This document shows, piece after piece, positions 3,578 to 64,000 of a stretch of 64,000 nucleotides of DNA. The notes under the pieces were generated by a model. It saw only the letters and a list, made by a program, of their open reading frames with translations, ran no database searches and had not been told where the DNA came from. Within the stretch, counting starts at the first letter, position 1. Every line of letters begins with the position of its first letter. This stretch comes from Escherchia phage Stokescottia, in sequence record OR896820.1. One strand, given 5' to 3'. The position numbers were made by a program, and so were the translations under genes.

Positions 3578-4210
3578 ATGACACAAGCTGCTATTGACTA
3601 TAACAAGTTAAAATCAGCACCGGTTCATTTAGATGCTTATATTAAATCTATTGATAGCGAATCCAAAGAAGGTGTTGTAAAAATCCGTGGATTCGCTAAT
3701 ACAATTAGTAAAGATCGCGCTGGTGATGTAATCCCTGCTTCGGCATGGAAAACATCTAATGCACTTGCTAACTACATGAAAAACCCGATTATTCTTTTCG
3801 GACACGACCATCGTCGTCCAATCGGCAAGTGTATTGATCTTAACCCTACTGAAATGGGTCTCGAAATCGAATGCGAGATCTATGAAAGTTCTGATCCGGC
3901 TATCTTTTCACTAATTAAAAACGGTGTACTGAAAACTTTTAGTATCGGATTCCGCTGCCTAGACGCAGAGTGGGATGAAGCTACTGATATATTTATTATT
4001 AAAGATTTAGAACTATACGAAGTTTCGGTAGTTTCTGTACCCTGTAATCAGGACTCAACATTCAATCTCGCTAAGAGCATGAATGGTCATGATTATACTG
4101 AATGGCGTAAATCTTTTACTGCAATAAGTTCTAAAGCTGTCCCAGCTCAAGAACGTAATCTTTCTGAACTAGAAAAACTTGCGATAGCTTTAGGCTACGT
4201 TAAAGAATAA
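3578..4210 (+). CDS. Prohead maturation protease (pb11-like)
   Basis: 210 aa directly upstream of the major capsid gene. Confidence 0.7.
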   Translation: MTQAAIDYNKLKSAPVHLDAYIKSIDSESKEGVVKIRGFANTISKDRAGDVIPASAWKTSNALANYMKNPIILFGHDHRRPIGKCIDLNPTEMGLEIECEIYESSDPAIFSLIKNGVLKTFSIGFRCLDAEWDEATDIFIIKDLELYEVSVVSVPCNQDSTFNLAKSMNGHDYTEWRKSFTAISSKAVPAQERNLSELEKLAIALGYVKE

Positions 4211-4227
4211 CGGAGAATTATTTAAAA

Positions 4228-5604
4228 ATGACTATTGATATTAATAAGCTGAAAGAAGAACTTGGTCTGGGTGATCTGGCTAAATCTCTGGAAGGTCTGA
4301 CCGCTGCTCAGAAAGCTGCTGAAGCTGAACGTATGCGTAAAGAGCAGGAAGAAAAAGAACTGGCTCGTATGAATGATCTGGTTTCTAAAGCAGTTGGCGA
4401 AGATCGTCAGAAACTGGAAGAAGCTCTGACTCTGGTTAAGTCTCTGGATGAGAAATCTAAGAAGAGCGCAGAACTGTTTGCACAGACTGTAGAAAAACAG
4501 CAGGAAACTATTGTTGGTCTCCAGGATGAAATTAAATCTCTGCTGGCAGCTCGTGAAGGACGTTCCTTCGTCGGTGATAGCGTAGCTAAAGCGCTGTACG
4601 GTACTCAGGAAAACTTTGAAGATGAAGTTGAAAAACTGGTTCTGTTATCTTATGTAATGGAAAAAGGCGTATTCGAGACCGAGCACGGTCAGAGACACCT
4701 GAAAGCAGTGAATCAGTCTTCCTCTGTAGAAGTTTCTAGTGAAAGCTATGAAACTATTTTCTCTCAGCGTATTATCCGTGACCTGCAGAAGGAACTGGTA
4801 GTTGGTGCACTGTTCGAAGAACTGCCAATGTCTAGTAAGATTCTTACTATGTTGGTTGAACCGGATGCTGGTAAAGCTACTTGGGTTGCTGCTTCTACCT
4901 ATGGTACTGATACTACTACTGGTGAGGAAGTTAAAGGCGCTCTTAAAGAAATTCACTTCAGTACTTACAAACTGGCTGCTAAGTCCTTCATTACTGATGA
5001 AACTGAAGAAGATGCAATCTTCTCCCTGCTACCGCTGCTTCGTAAGCGCTTGATTGAAGCACACGCTGTTTCTATCGAAGAAGCTTTCATGACTGGTGAT
5101 GGTTCTGGTAAGCCTAAAGGTCTGCTGACTCTTGCTAGTGAAGACAGCGCTAAAGTTATTACCGAAGCTAAAGCTGATGGTTCTGTTCTGGTAACTGCTA
5201 AAACTATCTCTAAACTGCGTCGTAAACTGGGCCGTCATGGTCTGAAACTGAGCAAACTGGTACTGATCGTATCTATGGATGCTTACTACGATCTGCTGGA
5301 AGATGAAGAATGGCAGGATGTTGCACAGGTTGGTAACGATGCTGTTAAACTGCAGGGCCAGGTTGGTCGTATTTATGGTCTGCCGGTTGTAGTTTCTGAA
5401 TACTTCCCAGCTAAAGCTACCTCCGCAGAGTTCGCAGTTATTGTTTATAAAGATAACTTTGTAATGCCGCGCCAGCGTGCTGTTACTGTTGAACGTGAGC
5501 GCCAAGCTGGTAAACAGCGTGATGCGTACTACGTTACTCAGCGTGTTAACCTGCAACGTTACTTTAGTAATGGCGTTGTATCTGGTGCTTACGCTGCATC
5601 TTAA
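4228..5604 (+). CDS. Major capsid protein (pb8-like) with N-terminal coiled-coil scaffolding region
   Basis: 458 aa; charged coiled-coil N-terminus; strongly biased high-expression codon usage; followed by a hairpin terminator. Confidence 0.8.
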   Translation: MTIDINKLKEELGLGDLAKSLEGLTAAQKAAEAERMRKEQEEKELARMNDLVSKAVGEDRQKLEEALTLVKSLDEKSKKSAELFAQTVEKQQETIVGLQDEIKSLLAAREGRSFVGDSVAKALYGTQENFEDEVEKLVLLSYVMEKGVFETEHGQRHLKAVNQSSSVEVSSESYETIFSQRIIRDLQKELVVGALFEELPMSSKILTMLVEPDAGKATWVAASTYGTDTTTGEEVKGALKEIHFSTYKLAAKSFITDETEEDAIFSLLPLLRKRLIEAHAVSIEEAFMTGDGSGKPKGLLTLASEDSAKVITEAKADGSVLVTAKTISKLRRKLGRHGLKLSKLVLIVSMDAYYDLLEDEEWQDVAQVGNDAVKLQGQVGRIYGLPVVVSEYFPAKATSAEFAVIVYKDNFVMPRQRAVTVERERQAGKQRDAYYVTQRVNLQRYFSNGVVSGAYAAS

Positions 5605-5624
5605 TACAGGCTTTTCAGCCGATA

Positions 5625-5650
5625 AGGAGAGCTTCGGCTCTCCTTTTTTA
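5625..5650 (+). terminator. Rho-independent terminator after the major capsid gene
   Basis: Hairpin AGGAGAGC-TTCG-GCTCTCCT followed by a T-run. Confidence 0.75.
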
Positions 5651-5663
5651 TTGGGAAAAATAA

Positions 5664-6176
5664 ATGCAAATCATCACAGCCGAAGATTATAGATTATACG
5701 GTAGTTTAAAACGACCTGAATTAGAGTCTGGTGTAGAAATGATGATTACTGCTGCCAATGCGCTGATTACGAGCCTTCTAGGCATGGATGATGCTGATGC
5801 GGTAGACCAGTTAATCAATACAAAACCTACACGTAGGAAATATTTTCTGAGCTCACCATCTGCTACCTCCGTAACTAAAGTGACGATTAACGATAATGAG
5901 ATTGACCCAGAGCAGTATAAACTATACTCTGACGGTATTATCCTTCTCAAATTTAATCCTCCAGAAGGTTATATGGACGTAGCGTATACACAAGGTGGAT
6001 TCAATCCAATGCCTGAAGATCTTAAGCTAGCAGCATGTATGCTAGTAGATCATTGGCATAAACAAGATTACCGCCAAGCTAAAACAATTGGTGGTGAAAC
6101 AGTAACCTTCAATAATACTAAATCTGGTATTCCAGAGCATATTCGTACTATTATTGAAGTATATAGGAGAGTATAA
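5664..6176 (+). CDS. Head completion / adaptor protein (p144-like)
   Basis: 170 aa; position between capsid and tail tube genes. Confidence 0.45.
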   Translation: MQIITAEDYRLYGSLKRPELESGVEMMITAANALITSLLGMDDADAVDQLINTKPTRRKYFLSSPSATSVTKVTINDNEIDPEQYKLYSDGIILLKFNPPEGYMDVAYTQGGFNPMPEDLKLAACMLVDHWHKQDYRQAKTIGGETVTFNNTKSGIPEHIRTIIEVYRRV

Positions 6177-6943
6177 TGTCTCTTTCCGATCTAGCTAAAC
6201 AAATTATTAAAGAGCAGCTAGATACTGCAGGACGATCTGAAAATAATAAGAATACTGTTGTGTACTCTGTTGAAACAGGGTTAAAAGATCCTACTAGAGA
6301 TGGTACTGTTGCTCAAGTATCCTTTAAGTTTTCAAAACCCGTATCACAAGATCTTCTTGATGTTAGAACAGCCTCTATACTAAAAGCTGTATCCTCTAGT
6401 TTAGATCTTTCGGGAGATTTAGGTGCTCTAGAAAATCTTATACAGGCAACCGCAGGTAAAAAATCTGCTGTAGGTAAAAAACGTTCTACAGGCAGAGTAG
6501 AGGTAAACTTTGGAGATCCTAAAGACGTAGAGGATGGATACTCAGGTGCAATAACAGGTGCTTCCGGACGTTTCGTGTCTAATAGCAATATGAAGGTTAT
6601 ATTAGAGATAGTTGCTAAAGAATACTTAATAAAGGATATGAAAAAGACAGGAGCGCCATTAAAATTTAGAACCGGTCGCTTTGCAAATTCTCTAAAAATT
6701 AAAGATGTTATGCTTAGAGACGCAGAGACTAGTAAAGGTTCTCCTGAATTGAACGTAACATATAATTATATGACTCGTCCATATTCTGTATTCAACCCTG
6801 CAGTATCCACCTACAGGAGACTATCTCTACGACCTTATCCTGGTGCTAGAAACCCCCAAAAACTTATTGGTGAGGCTATAGCAAAAGCTGCAAGAGACCT
6901 GATTCACTCCAGATATAAAATTAAGGTTAATCAAGGAACCTAA
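6176..6943 (+). CDS. Head-tail joining protein (p143-like)
   Basis: 255 aa; synteny only. Confidence 0.4.
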   Translation: MSLSDLAKQIIKEQLDTAGRSENNKNTVVYSVETGLKDPTRDGTVAQVSFKFSKPVSQDLLDVRTASILKAVSSSLDLSGDLGALENLIQATAGKKSAVGKKRSTGRVEVNFGDPKDVEDGYSGAITGASGRFVSNSNMKVILEIVAKEYLIKDMKKTGAPLKFRTGRFANSLKIKDVMLRDAETSKGSPELNVTYNYMTRPYSVFNPAVSTYRRLSLRPYPGARNPQKLIGEAIAKAARDLIHSRYKIKVNQGT

Positions 6944-6946
6944 TAA

Positions 6947-7432
6947 ATGGACCATAGAACAAGTATTGCACAAGCTATGGTTGACCGAATCTCTAAACAA
7001 ATGGATGGTTCTCAACCTGACGAATATTTTAATAACCTATACGGAAACGTTTCTCGTCAAACTTATAAATTTGAGGAAATACGAGAGTTTCCTTATGTGG
7101 CAGTTCATATCGGAACTGAAACTGGGCAGTATCTTCCTTCGGGCCAACAGTGGATGTTTTTAGAACTTCCAATCCTGGTGTACGATAAAGAGAAAACAGA
7201 CATTCAAGAGCAACTTGAAAAACTCGTAGCGGATATAAAAACCGTTATTGACACAGGTGGAAATTTAGAATATACTGTTAGTAAACCTAATGGATCGACC
7301 TTCCCATGTGAGGCAACTGATATGATCATTACATCAGTTAGTACAGATGAGGGTCTACTGGCCCCATATGGTTTAGCAGAAATAAATGTAACAGTGAGGT
7401 ATCAGCCTCCACGTAGGTCACTTCGCAGATAA
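6947..7432 (+). CDS. Tail terminator protein (p142-like)
   Basis: 161 aa immediately upstream of the tail tube gene. Confidence 0.4.
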   Translation: MDHRTSIAQAMVDRISKQMDGSQPDEYFNNLYGNVSRQTYKFEEIREFPYVAVHIGTETGQYLPSGQQWMFLELPILVYDKEKTDIQEQLEKLVADIKTVIDTGGNLEYTVSKPNGSTFPCEATDMIITSVSTDEGLLAPYGLAEINVTVRYQPPRRSLRR

Positions 7433-7458
7433 GTTACAGATTAGGAGAAAATAATTAA

Positions 7459-8853
7459 ATGTCTTTACAACTATTACGTAATACTCGAATCTTCGTGTCT
7501 ACGGTTAAGACTGGTCATGATAAGACCAACACGCAAGAGATTCTAGTTCAGGATGATATTTCTTGGGGTCAGGACAGTAACTCAACAGATATTACTGTTA
7601 ATGAAGCTGGTCCGCGTCCAACTCGTGGTTCTAAACGTTTTAATGACTCTTTAAACGCGGCTGAGTGGAGTTTCTCTACTTATATCCTGCCGTATAAAGA
7701 TAAAACTACTAGCAAACAAATTGTTCCTGACTATATGTTATGGCATGCACTTTCTAGTGGTAAAGCTATTAACTTAGAAGGTAATACAGGGGCACACAAT
7801 AACGAAGCTAACTTTATGGTTAACTTCAAAGATAACTCCTATCATGAGTTGGCAATGTTACATATTTATATTCTGACTGATAAAGCATGGAGTTATATCG
7901 ATTCCTGTCAGATTAATCAGGCAGAAATTAACGTTGATATCGAAGATATTGGCCGTGTAACTTGGTCTGGTAATGGTAATCAGCTTATTCCTCTGGATGA
8001 GCAACCATTTGACCCAGATGTAGTAGGTATTGATGATGAAACTTATATGACTATCCAGAGTTCTTATATTAAGAACAAACTTACTATCCTGAAAATTAAG
8101 GATATGGATTCTGGTAAAGCATATGATATTCCTATTACTGGTGGTACTTTCACTATTAATAACAACATCACGTACCTAACCCCGAATATTATGTCTCGTG
8201 TTAATATTCCAATTGGTTCCTTTACTGGTGCTTTTGAATTAACTGGTTCATTAACTGCTTATCTGAATGATAAATCTCTTGGTTCTATGGATCTGTATAA
8301 AGATCTTATCAAAACTCTGAAGGTAGTTAACCGCTTCGAAATTGCTCTAGTACTTGGTGGTGAATACGATGAAGAACGTCCTGCGGCTATTCTGGTAGCT
8401 AAACAAGCACACGTTAATATTCCTACTATTGAAACTGATGATGTACTTGGTACTTCAGTAGAGTTTAAAGCTATTCCATCTGATCTGGATGCTGGTGATG
8501 AAGGTTACTTAGGCTTCTCTAGTAAATATACCAAAACAACTATTAATAACTTGATTGTTAATGGTGATGGTGCTACTAATGCTGTAACCGCAATTACTGT
8601 TAAATCTGCTGGTGATGCTACTACAGTAAACAACTCGGCTACTCTTCAAATGAGTGTTGAAGTTACTCCTTCTTCCGCAAAGAATAAGGAAGTTACTTGG
8701 GCTATCACTGCCGGTGATGCAGCTACTATCAGTGCAACTGGACTGTTAACAGCACATGCTAGTAAAACTGGTGCAGTTACTGTAGAAGCTACTGCTAAAG
8801 ATGGTTCTGGAGTTAAAGGTACTAAACAGATTACTGTAACAACAGGTGGCTAA
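7459..8853 (+). CDS. Tail tube protein (pb6-like) with C-terminal Ig-like (Big_2-type) domain
   Basis: 464 aa; C-terminal Ig-like segment '...TVEATAKDGSGVKGTKQITVTTGG'. Confidence 0.75.
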   Translation: MSLQLLRNTRIFVSTVKTGHDKTNTQEILVQDDISWGQDSNSTDITVNEAGPRPTRGSKRFNDSLNAAEWSFSTYILPYKDKTTSKQIVPDYMLWHALSSGKAINLEGNTGAHNNEANFMVNFKDNSYHELAMLHIYILTDKAWSYIDSCQINQAEINVDIEDIGRVTWSGNGNQLIPLDEQPFDPDVVGIDDETYMTIQSSYIKNKLTILKIKDMDSGKAYDIPITGGTFTINNNITYLTPNIMSRVNIPIGSFTGAFELTGSLTAYLNDKSLGSMDLYKDLIKTLKVVNRFEIALVLGGEYDEERPAAILVAKQAHVNIPTIETDDVLGTSVEFKAIPSDLDAGDEGYLGFSSKYTKTTINNLIVNGDGATNAVTAITVKSAGDATTVNNSATLQMSVEVTPSSAKNKEVTWAITAGDAATISATGLLTAHASKTGAVTVEATAKDGSGVKGTKQITVTTGG

Positions 8854-47098: not shown

Positions 47099-47488
47099 TT
47101 AGTCACTTAACCCCGGAACATAGATCCCAACACGGTTTAATTGTTCTTTAGCTTCTTTGAGTATATCTGGAGTGTACTCCCAAATATCATCTTCCACCTG
47201 TAAAAGATGGGGCGAACAACCGTCATCAGGCACACGACATATGGCCAAACCACGTGGATGGAACAAAGAGAAATTTAGGGCAACAATTAAACCCATAGCA
47301 GACAATTCATTCCAATCCAATTCCCATTCCCCGGCGTATCCAGACAGGAAAATGCCAATGCATGGATCATCTATTTGCTGCTCCGGAAAAGTGAAGGAGG
47401 CTTGTCTTACCCCCAACCAACGTTGTAGCAGCTTCTCCGCACGTTTCACCAAACTAGGGTCAATCTGACGCCAATATACTTGTTCCAT
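47099..47488 (-). CDS. Hypothetical protein, tandem paralog A
   Basis: 129 aa; shares 'PCIGI', 'MGL..ALN..LF.P' and 'PGL' anchors with the adjacent ORF. Confidence 0.35.
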   Translation of the reverse strand: MEQVYWRQIDPSLVKRAEKLLQRWLGVRQASFTFPEQQIDDPCIGIFLSGYAGEWELDWNELSAMGLIVALNFSLFHPRGLAICRVPDDGCSPHLLQVEDDIWEYTPDILKEAKEQLNRVGIYVPGLSD

Positions 47489-47497
47489 CCTGCCTCC

Positions 47498-47926
47498 TTA
47501 AGCAGTTAAACCTGGGATCATATACCCGAAACGTCGAAGTTTCTGAATCCCATCATTTACTTCTTCCGGTGAGTAAGACCAACCATAACGTTCATTAACC
47601 TGAAAACCAGGAGATTCACTAGTTTTATAGTTAACAACGAGGCGATGCTTAGCAGGCATAAACAGCTTATAGTTTAACGCAAAAACTAAGCCCATTTCAT
47701 CTAACTCTTTCCAGCCGACAATCTCTTCAAGACCCTCCTCTACCTGAACAATTAAACCAATACAGGGGGCCTCATCAATATCATCTTTAAAAGCAAAGGA
47801 GATTTCGTTATTCTCACACCATATTTTCAAAGAGTTAATAGCCTTATTATACAGGCTAGCTGGGAGAGTACGCCAAAAGTTAACCAAAATTGGGTTAGCT
47901 TCTTTAGAGAATACATTATTAAACAT
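47498..47926 (-). CDS. Hypothetical protein, tandem paralog B
   Basis: 142 aa; paralog of 47099-47488. Confidence 0.35.
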   Translation of the reverse strand: MFNNVFSKEANPILVNFWRTLPASLYNKAINSLKIWCENNEISFAFKDDIDEAPCIGLIVQVEEGLEEIVGWKELDEMGLVFALNYKLFMPAKHRLVVNYKTSESPGFQVNERYGWSYSPEEVNDGIQKLRRFGYMIPGLTA

Positions 47927-47928
47927 AT

Positions 47929-48441
47929 TTACACCTTAAATTGTTGTAGGGCTTTACACATTTCAAGATCTGGACTAAATTCTAACATATAGCTAACAGC
48001 TTTTAAATCTTGAAGATTTATTCCAGTCCTACCGTTGACTATAACCGTTGGATACTGATACATCATAGCACCCGCATCGTCAAGCACACACCAATGTTTG
48101 AGCCTATGCTTTTCAACGAAGCGAAGAACAGAATTACCCCTAGATAATCCACCCCCGGTAAAATCCGTTGTACCAAGAAAACGATCGATAAGGCCTAATC
48201 CGGTCATAATCTGAACATTCTCCATCTCATTTCTGACAGAGAACCAAGATGATACTCCAACAATCATTATCGGGGAAGGACGAATAAAGTCCTGAAAAGC
48301 CTTGAGAAGCGGTTTGAAAACCCAGTCACTCCCAAAGAAAATCTTTTCATCATCAGGTGCATGATGGTGGGAGATGCTCGAATTGAGCACCCCATCAATG
48401 TCTAGAAAAATAATTGGAGTATTACTTATTTCCTGATACAT
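47929..48441 (-). CDS. HAD-superfamily phosphatase-like protein
   Basis: 170 aa; motif I 'FLDIDGVL'; start overlaps the Sir2-like gene end. Confidence 0.5.
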   Translation of the reverse strand: MYQEISNTPIIFLDIDGVLNSSISHHHAPDDEKIFFGSDWVFKPLLKAFQDFIRPSPIMIVGVSSWFSVRNEMENVQIMTGLGLIDRFLGTTDFTGGGLSRGNSVLRFVEKHRLKHWCVLDDAGAMMYQYPTVIVNGRTGINLQDLKAVSYMLEFSPDLEMCKALQQFKV

Positions 48442-49237
48442 AAGGTCTATCCCCTAAATGAGCTTCTACACGAGCAATAAAATCAGGATCACTGAAAGCA
48501 TCTACCGCACCTTTACTCCAGTAAGGGATACCGCGTTCTTCCAGCTGGTACATCTCACTACGAGTCATACCTTGATAGCCCGGTTCCACCGCTAGGGCAC
48601 TATCATAGTAGTTAACAACCATTAGCTTGGCAGCAGTCAAATTAAGAACAGGAAATAATTCCCAGTAGAAATTAATTACTTGGTTAGAGCAACCAACCAC
48701 AATGATCATATCTTGACTGGTAATACCATCAAAAATATTGTACATCTCCGCATATGCTGGAGCATGCTCTCCAAAGAAGATTACATTAGGTTTAACCCAT
48801 TTATAATCATCTGGATCAATAGAATTGTATCCTACATCAATAATCCGTTTATTGCTACTATTGTAGCTATCAGCTACAACAACCTCTTTTAAATATCCGT
48901 GAATGTGCAGAATGTCACTATGTGAAACGCCAGCACGCTCAATAAGGTCATCAACGTTGGTAGTCAAGTTTACTACTTGACCTGGATATTGTTTATACCA
49001 TTCACCAATACGCAAATGCGCAAGATTGGGTTCAACAGTTTTTAGCTCTTCACGACGCTTGTTGTAAAACATATGGGTTTTATGATAAAAATTACCACGA
49101 AAGGCATGAATATTACATACTTCTTCTAGATCATAATCATCCCACAGTGCTTTACCACTAGCAGTATCAGTACGAAAAGCTCGTACACCACTTTCAACAC
49201 TCAAACCTGCACCGCTAATAATAATTAATCTACGCAT
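48422..49237 (-). CDS. Sir2-family NAD-dependent protein (sirtuin-like, no zinc ribbon)
   Basis: 271 aa; sirtuin motifs 'GAGLSVESGVRAFR', 'TTNVDDL', catalytic 'HG', 'PNVIFFGE', 'VVGCS'; no CxxC pairs. Confidence 0.65.
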   Translation of the reverse strand: MRRLIIISGAGLSVESGVRAFRTDTASGKALWDDYDLEEVCNIHAFRGNFYHKTHMFYNKRREELKTVEPNLAHLRIGEWYKQYPGQVVNLTTNVDDLIERAGVSHSDILHIHGYLKEVVVADSYNSSNKRIIDVGYNSIDPDDYKWVKPNVIFFGEHAPAYAEMYNIFDGITSQDMIIVVGCSNQVINFYWELFPVLNLTAAKLMVVNYYDSALAVEPGYQGMTRSEMYQLEERGIPYWSKGAVDAFSDPDFIARVEAHLGDRPYVSGNK

Positions 49238-59526: not shown

Positions 59527-59811
59527 ATGCGGATTTATAACTCAAATTCATTAGGATTTAAACCATTGAGAAAACGTGCACAATCACCTCGTCAAATAAG
59601 AAAGGCTAATATTGGTGAGCCAGAGACACGACTTCCACCTCCTCCAGAACAACGTTTAGTTTATCTGGACGAAGAATTAGCGGAATGCGAAAGAAAAGCT
59701 CAAGAAGAGATTGAGCGTAAGAAAATGTGTACTGCTCCAGCCTACTCCAAAGGGGCTTATCAGTATATCTATACAGCCGAGGAGGCTAAAGATGCGGGGC
59801 GTAAAAAATGA
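59527..59811 (+). CDS. Hypothetical protein, translationally coupled to the NADAR gene
   Basis: 94-aa ORF whose stop overlaps the NADAR ATG (ATGA). Confidence 0.3.
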   Translation: MRIYNSNSLGFKPLRKRAQSPRQIRKANIGEPETRLPPPPEQRLVYLDEELAECERKAQEEIERKKMCTAPAYSKGAYQYIYTAEEAKDAGRKK

Positions 59812-60257
59812 AGATTACTGAATTTAAAGGTACTTATAGTTTCTTATCAAACTTTTATTTATCACCAATTACTTTCGAATATCTAAATGAAATATGGCAT
59901 GCTGATACTGTAGAACATGCTTTTCAGGCTATGAAATCCGACCAAAAAGATGATGTAGCTCATGTACTGCGCTCCCTAAATGCAGGAGTTGCCAAACGTA
60001 GAGGACGTAAATTAACTCTACGCTCTGACTGGGATAAGGTAAAAGATGATGTAATGCTAGAGCTTTTACGGTTAAAGTTTGCAATCCCTGATTTGAGAGA
60101 CAAACTGTTAGCAACAAAAAATGCAACTTTGATCGAAGGAAATACCTGGGGAGATACATATTGGGGTGTTTGCCGAGGCATTGGGGATAATACTCTAGGT
60201 GTTCTTTTGATGCAGGTAAGGTCTGAAATTAAAAGAAGCTTACAGTTAATAAATTAA
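59808..60257 (+). CDS. NADAR-domain (YbiA-like) protein
   Basis: 149 aa; 'FLSNFY', 'EHAFQAMK', 'KF..P.LR..LLAT....L.E....DTYWG'. Confidence 0.65.
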   Translation: MKITEFKGTYSFLSNFYLSPITFEYLNEIWHADTVEHAFQAMKSDQKDDVAHVLRSLNAGVAKRRGRKLTLRSDWDKVKDDVMLELLRLKFAIPDLRDKLLATKNATLIEGNTWGDTYWGVCRGIGDNTLGVLLMQVRSEIKRSLQLIN

Positions 60258-60332: not shown

Positions 60333-60848
60333 ATGGCTAAGCAGAAAAACGCAAAAACTCAAGCAGCTCCGGCAGTTAAAACTTTCCCGCAGACCGAGGC
60401 TAATCGCAAAGATCGCCTGGAACGTCACCTGCGTAAGCATCCTACCGATACCCAGGCTGCGCAAGCACTGAATAATCCGGCTCCGATTCGTCAGAAGCCT
60501 AAAGCTAAAAATGCCACCCGTAAATCCTACAAAATGGTTATGTATGTAGAAAATTACGGCCACAAATCTGTCCCAGTTTCCCTGAGCTTTAACGCTGGGG
60601 CTGAATTGTTCTCTCGTAATGGTATGTCTATGAAAGACTATGAGAAGGCAGTTAACCAGAAGCGTAAACCAACAGCAGATGTATTGCGTGATACTCGTGG
60701 ACAGTTTGGTTCTGTTAAGCCAAATATCTTTGGCGTAGAGTATAGTAAAGATAATGTTCGTGCTCTGTGTTACGGTGTAGGCATTAAGTTCACGGGTGAT
60801 TCTGCTCGTAAATCTGCTAAACCAGCTCGTAAGCGTAAAGCGAAGTAA
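60333..60848 (+). CDS. Hypothetical basic protein, probably abundant
   Basis: 171 aa, Lys/Arg-rich termini, high-expression codon bias, own promoter. Confidence 0.35.
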   Translation: MAKQKNAKTQAAPAVKTFPQTEANRKDRLERHLRKHPTDTQAAQALNNPAPIRQKPKAKNATRKSYKMVMYVENYGHKSVPVSLSFNAGAELFSRNGMSMKDYEKAVNQKRKPTADVLRDTRGQFGSVKPNIFGVEYSKDNVRALCYGVGIKFTGDSARKSAKPARKRKAK

Positions 60849-61419: not shown

Positions 61420-62121
61420 ATGAAAGTAAAACCATTTGGTATGCTAGATATTGAATCTCTAGGAACTCCAGGAGATTGTGGTACTACTCATATCGCAATG
61501 CCTTCTTTCGCTTTTGTGGCTATGCATGGAATTGATAAAGACCCTGATCTAGTATTTGTTACTTTGGATGTGCAAGATCAACTTAATTCTGGTGCCAAAG
61601 TCACAGCATCTACTCTAGCATTCTGGATGGATCAAGCTAAAAATAGTCCGTCTGCTATCCACATTATGGAAGCTATGAAGGAACGTAATCCAAAACTGAT
61701 TGCCTTCCAAAATGGTAAACATCATTGCACTAATAAATTAGGCTCAAACTATGCTGCCTTCTCTATGGCTCAAAATATTATGGAGTTGGCTCTAGGCGAA
61801 AATGCTTTGTATTATGGCAATGGCCCAGAGTTTGATATGACTATCTACTCTGCAAATACGTTCCATGCTGGAACCAATGAAGAGGTAGTTCCGTGGAAAT
61901 TCTGGAATTTGGGCAATGTTCGATCTCTTCGTAATCTCTGGATGCAAGCTGGATACAGTTATAAAGCTCTAGAGACCGAAGGTATTAGCTGGGCAATAGC
62001 TAAAATGGAGAAGATGGACACTATTCGTTATGGGATCTATCCAGTTAAGCACGACCCAGCATTCGATGCCTTAGTTGAGAGCTATTGTGTTGCAGCTATG
62101 ATCGAAAAAATGAAAATTTGA
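61420..62121 (+). CDS. Putative DEDDh-type 3'-5' exonuclease
   Basis: 233 aa; candidate Exo I 'LDIESLG', Exo II 'PEFDM', Exo III 'HDPAFDAL'. Confidence 0.45.
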   Translation: MKVKPFGMLDIESLGTPGDCGTTHIAMPSFAFVAMHGIDKDPDLVFVTLDVQDQLNSGAKVTASTLAFWMDQAKNSPSAIHIMEAMKERNPKLIAFQNGKHHCTNKLGSNYAAFSMAQNIMELALGENALYYGNGPEFDMTIYSANTFHAGTNEEVVPWKFWNLGNVRSLRNLWMQAGYSYKALETEGISWAIAKMEKMDTIRYGIYPVKHDPAFDALVESYCVAAMIEKMKI

Positions 62122-62374: not shown

Positions 62375-62427
62375 TAGACCAAATTTAAACAAATTCAAAT
62401 CTCAAACTTCGTATAAGGAAGCAAATA

Positions 62428-63066
62428 ATGACTACTCGTATTTCTAAAACTCGCGCTCTGGCAACTATCAAATCTCTGGAAGCTAAAATCCGTAAAGCTA
62501 CTGAACAGCAGCTTCTGATTGCTGTTGGTGAAGGTAAGGATAAAAACCAGGTTGTAGTTGGCGCTGCAATCGAAGTAGCTGATCTGTCTACCCGTATTAA
62601 GACTGATTTCCAATCTCTGCTGGATATGATGTCTCAGCGTGATCGTATCAAATCTGCTCTGATTAAGAGCAATGCAGAAACAATCGTTGAGATCGGTTCT
62701 CGTAAAATGACTGTTGCGGAAGCAATTGAAGCTAAGCGCTCTATGGAGCTTAAAGCTCAACTGCTGGCTAACATGCGTAAGCAGTTCCATGCCGCTACGG
62801 TTAAATTTAATACGCAGAAAGCACAATTTGATGCTAAATATGAGCGTTTACAGGATAGTATGGCTACTCGCGATAAGAAAACTTCCGAAGATGAAGTTAA
62901 AATGCAGCTCAACCTGCTGGAACTCAAGAATACTCCATTCTTGATTGACCCGCTGGAACTGGAAAAGCTGATTAAGCAGCATGACGAGGAATATCAGGAC
63001 TTTGCAACAAATGTTGACTTTGTTCTGTCCGAGTCTAACGCCTCTACCTTCATTGAAGTAGAGTAA
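62428..63066 (+). CDS. Hypothetical coiled-coil protein, probably abundant
   Basis: 212 aa with high-expression codon bias. Confidence 0.35.
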   Translation: MTTRISKTRALATIKSLEAKIRKATEQQLLIAVGEGKDKNQVVVGAAIEVADLSTRIKTDFQSLLDMMSQRDRIKSALIKSNAETIVEIGSRKMTVAEAIEAKRSMELKAQLLANMRKQFHAATVKFNTQKAQFDAKYERLQDSMATRDKKTSEDEVKMQLNLLELKNTPFLIDPLELEKLIKQHDEEYQDFATNVDFVLSESNASTFIEVE

Positions 63067-63449
63067 TAATTTAAAAGCTAGTAAATCGGTAGACGAAAGC
63101 CCAAGCATCTTACCTCGCAGCAGCGGTTGAAATACGAGGTTAAATAAGACCGCTGACCATACTATAAAGTATAATCTATTGGAGATTATGTTTATTACAC
63201 CAGCCTTTTAAGCTGACACGTAAGAACAAAGCGTCGTTGATATTACCGACACAACTTCAAAGATCAACATTTAAGTATGAAAGCTGAAAAGTTTAAAGAA
63301 CTCAAACTTCTAAACTTCTAAAGCTAAAAGATGCAAAGTATTCGTTGATGATTCAAACCCTAGATCAAAGGTACATGGCTCATAAGATATGGCCTGTGGC
63401 GCCTCTAGGCTGTTTATCGGTTTACTAGTTTCACAATTTAAAAATGTAT

Positions 63450-63478
63450 TTGCTAATTTACTAAGTTATCTGTATAAT
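63450..63478 (+). promoter_or_regulatory. Promoter (TTGCTA-N17-TATAAT)
   Basis: Hexamers with 17-nt spacing upstream of the receiver-like gene. Confidence 0.6.
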
Positions 63479-63508
63479 ATATTTTTAAATTGATGAAACG
63501 AGGCTATT

Positions 63509-63826
63509 ATGACTTTTCATATTTTGATTGATGATGTGCGTAATCTTCACGGAATGGACATTATCATTCGAACCCCAGAAGCCGCTGTAGAGTTTCTGAA
63601 TAAAACTGATACCACAGGCCATTTCGTTTATATGGATAATGACTTGGCTGTAGATGGTATGGAGGGTTATCAAATTCTTCGTTTACTCTTAGAATTTGGG
63701 CAGAGACCAAAGAAAGTGGTACTAGTAACCTCGAACCCAGTAGCTAAGCAAAATATGCGTAATGATTTGCTTGACTTAGGGTATAAAGAAAATCCCAATC
63801 GTGTTGAATATGATTGGCAGGAGTAA
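63509..63826 (+). CDS. Standalone CheY-like receiver-domain protein
   Basis: 105 aa; 'ILIDD', 'VYMDNDLAVDGMEGYQIL', 'VVLVTS' resemble the receiver fold. Confidence 0.4.
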   Translation: MTFHILIDDVRNLHGMDIIIRTPEAAVEFLNKTDTTGHFVYMDNDLAVDGMEGYQILRLLLEFGQRPKKVVLVTSNPVAKQNMRNDLLDLGYKENPNRVEYDWQE

Positions 63827-63831
63827 AAAGA

Positions 63832-64000
63832 ATGAAGGCAGCTTTGCTTTTAGTAGCTGCCCTTACCTTCAGCTTTAGTAGTCAGGCATCGCACGATGCA
63901 AGAGAAATAGATTGCATTGCTAAAAATATCTATTTCGAAAGTCGTGGTGAGGGCATAAAGGGAATGACGGCGATTGCACATGTTACTAAAAACCGTGTAA
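63832..64000 (+). CDS. Secreted cell-wall hydrolase-like protein (SleB/CwlJ-type), 3'-truncated at the window edge
   Basis: Signal peptide 'MKAALLLVAALTFSFSSQA' then 'NIYFESRGEG...AIAHVTKNRV'; AGGAG RBS; not in the ORF track because it is truncated. Confidence 0.4.
   Translation, partial: MKAALLLVAALTFSFSSQASHDAREIDCIAKNIYFESRGEGIKGMTAIAHVTKNRV

Follow-up and report, generated by a model that had tools for sequence, protein, structure and literature searches.

A divergent receiver-fold protein of the cREC family in a T5-like phage: surroundings and proposed phosphate chemistry

Receivers and HAD phosphatases both place an Asp nucleophile beside a carboxylate-bound Mg2+. In receivers, the residues two positions after this Asp (D+2) and two positions after the conserved Thr (T+2) are variable and modulate how long the phospho-Asp persists, i.e., hydrolysis of the phosphoryl group, and in known histidine kinase-response regulator complexes alpha1 is the main docking helix for the kinase. 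In HAD enzymes, an Asp at nucleophile +2 is the general acid/base that enables turnover. The cREC family was defined by Iyer, Anantharaman, Krishnan, Burroughs, and Aravind (Viruses 2021) as a divergent receiver, with T5.084 and KVP40.0304 among its published members (PMC7824862), and was reported never to occur with histidine kinases (PMC7824862; likewise PMC9503650). Its genes were linked to NAD+/ADP-ribose-processing genes and RNA ligases, the predicted role being the processing of cADPr or 2',3'-cyclic phosphates, with cADPr or ADPr>P as the proposed substrates (PMC7824862). In 2022, Iyer et al. repeated this prediction and called the family experimentally uncharacterized (PMC9503650); a search of the literature on cREC, PF20274, and T5.084 yielded no biochemical or genetic test, and none later than the 2022 prediction. 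Here, we compare a cREC gene of phage Stokescottia with these systems.

The gene and its family

The window analyzed, i.e., the whole stretch of 64,000 nucleotides (OR896820.1), is part of a T5-like virulent phage (Tequintavirus). T5-type structural genes occupy its first 20 kb, and positions 62400-64000 are 98-99% identical to many Tequintavirus genomes. The initial annotation had placed an open reading frame (ORF) of 105 aa at 63509-63826, and this was recovered exactly, from ATG to TAA on the + strand, together with signals for its expression:

63450..63478, + strand: sigma-70-like early promoter for cREC, TTGCTA - 17 nt - TATAAT (consensus scan, 10/12 matches)
63500..63503, + strand: Shine-Dalgarno GAGG, 5 nt 5' of the cREC ATG (from sequence)
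63509..63826, + strand: cREC gene, ortholog of T5.084 / KVP40.0304 (ATG..TAA ORF, 105 aa plus stop)

The promoter site coincides in position with the one annotated 5' of T5.084 in the T5 record (NC_005859) and in phage Bf23; in the former record, T5.084 is labeled 'hypothetical protein, similar to KVP40.0304'. Compared with T5 and seven Epseptimaviruses, dN/dS of the cREC gene was 0.08-0.11 (dS, 0.25-0.63), and the ORF is therefore a constrained protein-coding gene under purifying selection. It is a genuine gene.

Assignment of the ORF to the cREC family is secure. Its product matched Pfam entry PF20274 (cREC_REC) with 56.8 bits (cut-off, 27; E = 3.8e-15), residues 4-87 of the protein aligning with positions 2-86 of the 88 in the model, and the same entry was matched by every distant relative checked. 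The product also falls in phrog_1479 (PHROGs, function unknown; E = 3.8e-30), and identical or near-identical proteins are already named 'cyclic-phosphate processing receiver domain-containing protein' in some GenBank and UniRef records. NCBIfam profiles gave nothing at E <= 10, and PADLOC models gave zero matches for the product and for three distant relatives. The gene was already known: both the cREC family and T5.084 have been found anew here, which is of little value as a discovery, given a Pfam entry and a functional prediction published since 2021. Length, stand-alone architecture, conserved Asp residues, and phage distribution are all shared with the family, and no feature sets the ORF product apart from it; at two positions, the T5 clade departs from the majority, with A47 instead of Gly (94% of members) and W103 instead of Lys or Arg at the aligned position (90%), and the copies of T5-like phages have no adjoining RNA ligase or Nudix domain. 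The protein is stand-alone, and the earlier statement that there is no output domain held.

By tblastn, the ORF product was found in 493 phage records; approximately 395 of these were T5-like (at least 80% identity), and the remainder were distant copies, including 50 Vibrio phage records. A profile search among 1.84 billion representative proteins yielded 427 cREC representatives at 50% identity, nearly all of them approximately 100 residues long and stand-alone, and a second profile search yielded 1101 clusters at 90% identity, the best 120 of which had PF20274 as the sole domain. In longer cREC-bearing proteins, the single interpretable extra domain was an HNH homing endonuclease (P0033). 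No other Pfam domain scored above cut-off in the larger cREC proteins examined, and among the matches listed there were none of the Nudix fusions reported previously (PMC9503650). The family is widespread in large phages, being carried by up to 18% of jumbo phages (PMC9503650). When prokaryotes were scanned with a single peptide pattern (one genome for each of 185,579 species), 8 cREC loci were found, all in metagenome-assembled genomes (MAGs), in line with its published description as a family mostly of phages and prophages (PMC9503650).

Fold and active-site register

The AlphaFold2 model of cREC (15 homologs) had a mean pLDDT of 91.8 and a pTM of 0.85, and Foldseek matched it to the receivers of DesR, GacS D1, and NarL (TM, 0.55-0.59). 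Strands were assigned by DSSP to residues 4-7, 18-20, 39-42, 69-72, 93-94, and 100-102, and helices to residues 23-32, 53-62, and 77-90 and no others. Strand 1 (4-7) is joined to strand 2 (18-20) by a loop in place of alpha1, and helix 77-90 is followed by a short hairpin (93-94 and 100-102) in place of alpha5. As modeled, cREC has a Rossmann-like receiver-type fold with an incomplete (beta-alpha)5 arrangement; the flavodoxin-like receiver fold on which the initial annotation had staked its proposal was thus returned by structure prediction. A sequence-profile search of the PDB with cREC gave chance-level matches only (e.g., resolvase, E >= 0.29), from which it follows that no cREC structure has been solved, and PDB profile and structure searches gave no solved structure closer than the receivers matched.

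Conservation was computed on 145 cREC representatives with a pairwise identity of <=50%. Three short stretches of the gene encode the core of the site:

63530..63541, + strand: codons D8-D9-V10-R11, acidic pair after strand 1 and family-conserved Arg (D8/D9 at 63530-63535)
63635..63643, + strand: codons D43-N44-D45, putative nucleophile Asp and D+2 Asp (DxD motif; D43 at 63635-63637)
63728..63736, + strand: codons T74-S75-N76, Thr after strand 4 and Asn at T+2 (T74/S75 at 63728-63733)

Among the 145 representatives, D8, D9, D43, and D45 were each conserved in 99%, position 74 was T or S in 99%, and N76 was present in 98%; position 44 was H or N. Two Arg residues (R11, 95%; R21, 99%) and D17 (88%) were also conserved, as were G53 (99%), P67 (94%), and Y92 (92%). 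In a profile alignment to Escherichia coli CheY, D8/D9 corresponded to D12/D13, D43 to D57, T74 to T87, and Y92 to Y106, while D45 corresponded to N59 (D+2) and N76 to E89 (T+2). CheY K109 fell on N95 of cREC, in a non-conserved column (K, 14%; N, 13%). This alignment is weak taken alone (E = 0.0015) and consistent with the structural matches, and it requires a 12-residue gap in the part of the fold that has no alpha1 and alpha5. The acidic pocket, the acceptor Asp, and the Thr/Ser that had been noticed earlier are D8-D9, D43, and T74/S75; D8, D9, D43, and T74 are each 99% conserved (T74 as T or S) and in register with CheY, and their presence is no coincidence.

Compared with CheY-type single-domain response regulators (PF00072), cREC shares the central parallel sheet with an active site at the C-terminal ends of the strands, and D8/D9, D43, T74, and Y92 stand in register with CheY D12/D13, D57, T87, and Y106. 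In contrast to PF00072 receivers, cREC has a 10-residue loop where alpha1 would be and a short hairpin where alpha5 would be, and the conserved quintet is incomplete: the DD pair, the D, and the T are present, but the Lys equivalent to K109 is absent. The D+2 and T+2 positions, which are variable in PF00072 receivers, are an invariant Asp and Asn in cREC, and cREC, unlike those receivers, has no reported histidine-kinase partner; no kinase was annotated in the T5 stretch inspected around T5.084. The product also fails the Response_reg profile (12.5 bits versus a cut-off of 30.2; E = 0.17). The description of the protein as CheY-like thus stood for the receiver fold and the DD/D/T residues and did not stand for alpha1, alpha5, the Lys, or the Response_reg profile itself; the related phage receiver family that a profile search did bring up was PF20274.

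Gene neighborhoods and proposed function

Several genes in the Stokescottia window are candidate neighbors or pathway partners of cREC, listed here with the gene that follows it:

47929-48441, - strand: HAD_SAK_2 RNA-repair phosphatase, candidate pathway partner (PF18143, E = 7.5e-20)
48422-49237, - strand: SIR2, candidate pathway partner (PF02146, E = 4.2e-25)
59808..60257, + strand: NADAR domain protein, candidate functional neighbor, 3.3 kb from cREC (PF08719, E = 6.3e-22)
61420..62121, + strand: Rv2179c-like 3'-5' exoribonuclease, T5.087 ortholog, candidate functional neighbor (PF16473, E = 3.4e-8)
63832..64000, cut by the window end, + strand: T5.083 ortholog, a SleB-like cell-wall hydrolase bearing a signal peptide (annotation in relatives: cell wall hydrolase/endolysin)

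NADAR, SIR2, HAD_SAK_2, and the exoribonuclease are scattered in the window, and none of the first three adjoins cREC, the HAD_SAK_2 and SIR2 pair (47929..49237) lying approximately 14-15 kb away. The nearest neighbors of cREC in Stokescottia are the cell-wall hydrolase and a protein without an assigned function, with no RNA ligase adjoining. For SP15-type (T5-like) phages, a pair of a sirtuin and a 'Swiss-army-knife' HAD has been proposed to be an RNA-end repair module (PMC9503650), and NADAR, as was cREC, has been placed in the NAD/ADP-ribose network (PMC7824862). The SleB-like gene starts 5 nt 3' of the cREC stop with no terminator-like site between, and because of this spacing the two genes are probably co-transcribed. 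We discarded the SleB-like hydrolase as a functional partner of cREC because the two genes are not adjacent in phage My1 and have a homing endonuclease between them in phage Ace. In T5, T5.084 borders the tRNA region. In a CRISPRi-ART screen of T5 in E. coli DH10B, knock-down of T5.084 was scored 'Not Fit' (five guides; mean fitness, -4.196; P = 0.88) (PMC11879866); T5.084 knock-down is therefore without fitness effect in DH10B, and the gene is dispensable under laboratory conditions, as expected of a conditional accessory gene. The HIDEN-SEQ preprint holds no T5 gene data.

Approximately 39 distinct loci of distant relatives (proteins 30-50% identical to that of Stokescottia) were gathered with subfamily alignments from IMG/VR, MAGs, and other assemblies. 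In most of these, cREC is surrounded by small early-type ORFs of no known function, and the link to RNA repair is therefore found in a minority of loci. A census of 157 neighboring proteins from approximately 31 loci, read from the top 25 Pfam families listed, revealed no universal cREC partner, and a fixed two-gene system was dropped as a candidate because most neighbor Pfam families occurred once. RNA ligases are, by estimate, rare in phage genomes; four types of RNA ligase were nevertheless found beside cREC or <=3.5 kb from it across other phages, and four such families near one 100-residue domain are hard to ascribe to chance. In one locus (L018), cREC (5007-5312) overlaps a 149-aa P-loop kinase, followed by a T4-type RNA ligase 1 and then by two calcineurin-like phosphoesterases, with the Thoeris inhibitor Tad3 two genes 5' of cREC; the relation of this kinase and ligase to T4 Pnk or Rnl1 is drawn from Pfam only because neither had a phmmer match in the PDB. 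In L039, a Pnkp kinase-phosphatase-ligase ends 67 nt 5' of cREC; in L031, RtcB is one gene away, with tRNA genes 1.5 kb upstream; and in L056, a PF09414 RNA ligase lies 3.4 kb upstream. Since L018 and L039 hold other phosphoesterases (Metallophos), cREC need not be the end-healing enzyme there.

Other neighbors of the distant relatives include the 2H phosphodiesterase Acb1, immediately 5' of cREC in L057; Antirestrict, AbiEii, and RNase_T in L055; SIR2; and, in L040 (an unrelated locus), an Rv2179c-like exoribonuclease that is two genes away from cREC and of the same family as that in the Stokescottia window. tRNA genes were present at <=5-6 kb from cREC in 8 of 33 distant loci; in L015, L026, and L027, cREC lies within or abuts a tRNA cluster, and in L023, the KVP40 tRNA cluster is 2 kb away. 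This proximity to tRNA genes is only suggestive.

We read cREC as a stripped-down receiver fold that keeps the phosphoryl- and Mg2+-binding acidic residues and the Thr and is no signaling receiver, and that would serve as a small stand-alone aspartate-based phosphoesterase in the processing of RNA ends or cyclic phosphates, a proposition that we rate above its alternatives and consider evenly balanced. A change from phospho-switch to phosphoesterase is suggested because D45 and N76 are frozen, two Arg residues were gained, and the kinase-docking helix and the Lys were lost. The same prediction was made by the describers of the family from independent data and is counted in support; counted against it is aligned position 103, at which 90% of the family carries a basic residue and the T5 clade a Trp. 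In the mechanism proposed, a divalent metal and the phosphate of the substrate would be bound by D8, D9, and D43; nucleophilic attack by D43 would give a short-lived acyl-phosphate; D45, at the position of the HAD general acid/base, would promote departure of the leaving group and fast hydrolysis; and T74, N76, R11, and R21 would hold the phosphate in lieu of the missing Lys. By analogy with HAD enzymes, D45 may act as the general acid/base, and receiver and HAD chemistry suggests a metal-dependent site, contrary to the describers of the family, who call the site metal-independent.

The substrates would likely be the phosphorylated ends that metal-independent RNases and 2H enzymes produce, i.e., broken RNA (above all tRNA) ending in a 2',3'-cyclic, 3'-, or 2'-phosphate, or small-molecule equivalents such as ADP-ribose 1'',2''-cyclic phosphate. 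In a T5-type phage, cREC would be an accessory gene next to the tRNA region, transcribed early from a sigma-70 promoter. It would pay off only against a host that damages RNA or uses such nucleotides as signals and would be dispensable in a defense-poor laboratory host. More specifically, cREC may be a phosphoesterase that forms an aspartyl-phosphate on a receiver scaffold, HAD-like but with its DxD after strand 3, with which T5-type phages reverse the effects of host defenses that generate cyclic or terminal phosphates (by healing anticodon-nuclease-cut tRNAs or by completing the breakdown of cyclic-nucleotide or ADP-ribose immune signals); we put this fuller version forward tentatively, as possible and somewhat short of probable. 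If true, cREC would be the first stand-alone enzyme demonstrated on a receiver-fold domain, and it would represent a new type of counter-defense protein, in a genetically tractable model phage; a receiver fold turned stand-alone phosphoesterase, once shown, would connect the chemistry of two-component systems with RNA repair or counter-defense in phages. T5.084, with 105 strongly constrained residues in a model phage with genome-wide knock-down data, is a convenient test case.

The HAD domain of T4 polynucleotide kinase-phosphatase (a DxDxT aspartyl-phosphatase) would share with cREC the Asp nucleophile, the Asp two residues on, and the carboxylate Mg2+ site, as well as RNA ends with a 3'-phosphate or a 2',3'-cyclic phosphate as targets, and the arrangement in L018, in which cREC overlaps a phosphatase-less 149-aa P-loop kinase followed by an RNA ligase, resembles a split kinase-phosphatase. 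HAD enzymes carry their DxD after strand 1, with squiggle, flap, and cap, whereas cREC has it after strand 3 of a receiver fold, and no HAD family in Pfam matched cREC at E <= 10; the resemblance would be confined to mechanism. The job that the describers of the family predict for cREC, the opening of cyclic phosphates (PMC9503650), is also that of the 2H phosphoesterases (e.g., Acb1 and LigT), but the fold and the catalytic residues of the latter (two His-x-Thr/Ser motifs) are unrelated, and they are metal independent.

With the same chemistry directed at another target, cREC could instead destroy immune messengers or their cyclic-phosphate products, e.g., CBASS or type III CRISPR cyclic oligonucleotides after cleavage by 2H enzymes or ring nucleases, or ADP-ribose-derived Thoeris-type signals, and serve anti-defense rather than RNA repair. 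The anti-CBASS protein Acb1 directly 5' of cREC in L057, Tad3 two genes 5' in L018, and Antirestrict and AbiEii in L055 fit this alternative, as do NADAR and SIR2 in the Stokescottia window, the cADPr and ADPr>P substrates proposed by the describers (PMC7824862), and the dispensability of T5.084 in a laboratory host (PMC11879866). Each of these anti-defense neighbors is, however, a single occurrence, and their adjacency is weak evidence because accessory regions of phages mix many anti-defense genes. The recurrent and more specific neighbors are RNA ligases of four types, no PADLOC model matches cREC, and gcADPR-type signals hold no cyclic phosphate; overall, we regard destruction of messengers as unlikely. 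The broader suggestion of the initial annotation that the protein acts on nucleotide signaling remains plausible as a nucleotide-related role, which fits the published prediction for the family and the Acb1 and Tad3 neighbors. Tad1, Tad2, and Acb2 are known small phage sponges, and cREC, a protein of approximately 100 aa with no further domain in the best 120 of 1101 clusters, is of a size that can be likened to theirs. Its pocket might accordingly be non-catalytic, a sponge for a phosphorylated ligand or nucleotide, or cREC might be a regulatory subunit or adaptor of a phage or host protein, and the conservation of Y92 (92%), equivalent to the CheY switch residue Y106, could mean a conformational switch. 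Yet four invariant acidic residues with a Thr and an Asn are typical of metal-phosphate chemistry and not of sponges for anionic ligands, and the D+2 Asp and T+2 Asn, at positions that tune hydrolysis in receivers, are invariant; a pure binder seems to us decidedly improbable.

A receiver fold with DD, D, and T in CheY register would also suit a genuine response regulator of the single-domain type, or a phosphate sink, that is fed by host histidine kinases, Hpt proteins, or acetyl phosphate and rewires host signaling, as the initial annotation had supposed in suggesting interception of host two-component systems. The findings do not bear this out: the protein scored 12.5 bits against the Response_reg cut-off of 30.2, alpha1 (the main kinase-docking surface) and alpha5 are missing from the model, and CheY K109 has no conserved Lys counterpart. 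The family is, moreover, almost phage-only, with just 8 loci, all in MAGs, in 185,579 species (one genome each, a single peptide pattern), and is reported never to be linked to histidine kinases (PMC7824862, PMC9503650). We consider such a regulator extremely unlikely. Equally slight is the chance that cREC is a Toprim-like metal-dependent nuclease. Toprim domains carry an acidic residue (Glu) after strand 1 and a DxD at topologically equivalent positions, where cREC has DD after strand 1 and an invariant DxD after strand 3 of a Rossmann-like sheet, but sequence and fold searches with cREC gave zero Toprim signal.

The non-coding block upstream of the gene

Directly 5' of the cREC gene is a non-coding gap of 440 bp that is conserved above the surrounding genes. 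Between Stokescottia and Epseptimaviruses, the block at 63251-63449 is 95-96.5% identical, compared with 87-89% for the flanking coding sequence and a synonymous divergence of approximately 0.5. The block contains no ORF of >=35 codons and is without annotation in nearly all of the records listed; no Rfam family or tRNA-like gene was found in the non-coding block 5' of cREC. Folding of its invariant core was no better than that of shuffled sequence. When the whole 383 nt was folded (+ strand), it folded better than shuffles (z = -4.8), with a long-range stem between 63068-63094 and 63412-63438.

Conserved non-coding interval and its flanking genes

The cREC gene (the T5.084 ortholog, encoding a 105-aa protein of the PF20274 family) is separated from the T5.085 ortholog upstream by an unannotated gap and is followed by a hydrolase gene.

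62428-63066, + strand: T5.085 ortholog, 212 aa, in the early nucleotide-metabolism region
63067-63449: the unannotated gap itself, with its core at 63251-63449 and a nearly invariant stretch at 63315-63430
63832-64000, + strand, cut by the window end: T5.083, SleB-like cell-wall hydrolase, downstream of cREC

Conservation was higher in the gap than in the genes on either side: in comparisons with Epseptimaviruses, the gap was 95 to 96.5% identical, whereas the coding flanks were 87 to 89% identical (dS of ~0.5). No open reading frame of at least 35 codons was found in the gap, and no part of it matched Rfam or a tRNA. Folding of the whole 383 nt on the + strand gave a z score of -4.8, with a long-range stem between 63068-63094 and 63412-63438; the invariant core, when folded alone, did no better than shuffled sequence. 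The gap could be a noncoding RNA or a regulatory site acting at the DNA level.

The T5.085 ortholog is labeled "tail fiber protein" in many records, a label that looks unsupported. No Pfam match at an E value of ≤0.01 was found for this protein, and knockdown of T5.085 was scored "Not Fit" in the T5 screen (PMC11879866). The T5.083 product, frequently labeled "endolysin" in records, begins with an apparent signal peptide (MKAALLLVAALTFSFSSQA). Its position in the early region, together with this secretion signal, suggests that its role differs from that of the lysis-cassette endolysin.

Variation and neighbors of cREC in other phages

In T5-like phages, the cREC gene was repeatedly adjoined by, or called as fused to, homing endonuclease genes, as in the following cases.

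L045, 2823-3347: locus of phage Ace
P0033: homologous protein
H76: match in phage Kenya-K44

At the DNA level, the cREC gene of phage Ace was only 62% identical to that of the window, whereas the upstream noncoding block retained ~95% identity. This contrast points to a local replacement of cREC in this phage. P0021, a 78% identical homolog from the T5 clade, carries Tyr at the otherwise invariant D9, the second residue of the conserved acidic pair (HILIDYVRNL). Two contigs carried this form; it may be a copy that has lost its activity, or else a sequencing variant.

A cREC relative also lies in a compact operon, where an anti-Thoeris gene adjoins an RNA repair cassette.

L018 (IMGVR_UViG_3300024054_000020), 3840-8013: cREC, P-loop kinase, T4-type RNA ligase 1, Metallophos_2, and Metallophos

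The gene for Tad3, a Thoeris inhibitor, is located two genes upstream in this locus.

Fitness-linked and accessory genes

With respect to T5.084, the published knockdown screen disagrees with itself (PMC11879866). The supplementary note places T5.084 and T5.090 among the "Fit" genes of unknown function, but both are "Not Fit" according to the 17-gene Fit list in that same note and the data tables, in which T5.084 has a value of -4.196 (P = 0.88). We took the status of T5.084 from the data tables.

Further features lie elsewhere in the window.

47099-47926, - strand: two adjacent paralogous DUF7415 proteins, beside the SIR2/HAD_SAK_2 pair
59808-60257, + strand: NADAR-domain gene, between the T5.090 and T5.089 orthologs
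60333-60848, + strand: DUF7022 protein, T5.089 ortholog

In the T5 reference, T5.090 and T5.089 are separated by just an 84-bp gap with a promoter; the NADAR gene is therefore an accessory insertion in the Stokescottia lineage. T5.107, one of the two DUF7415 paralogs, and T5.089 were both "Fit" in the T5 screen (PMC11879866), which makes them genes of unknown function with a measurable fitness effect.
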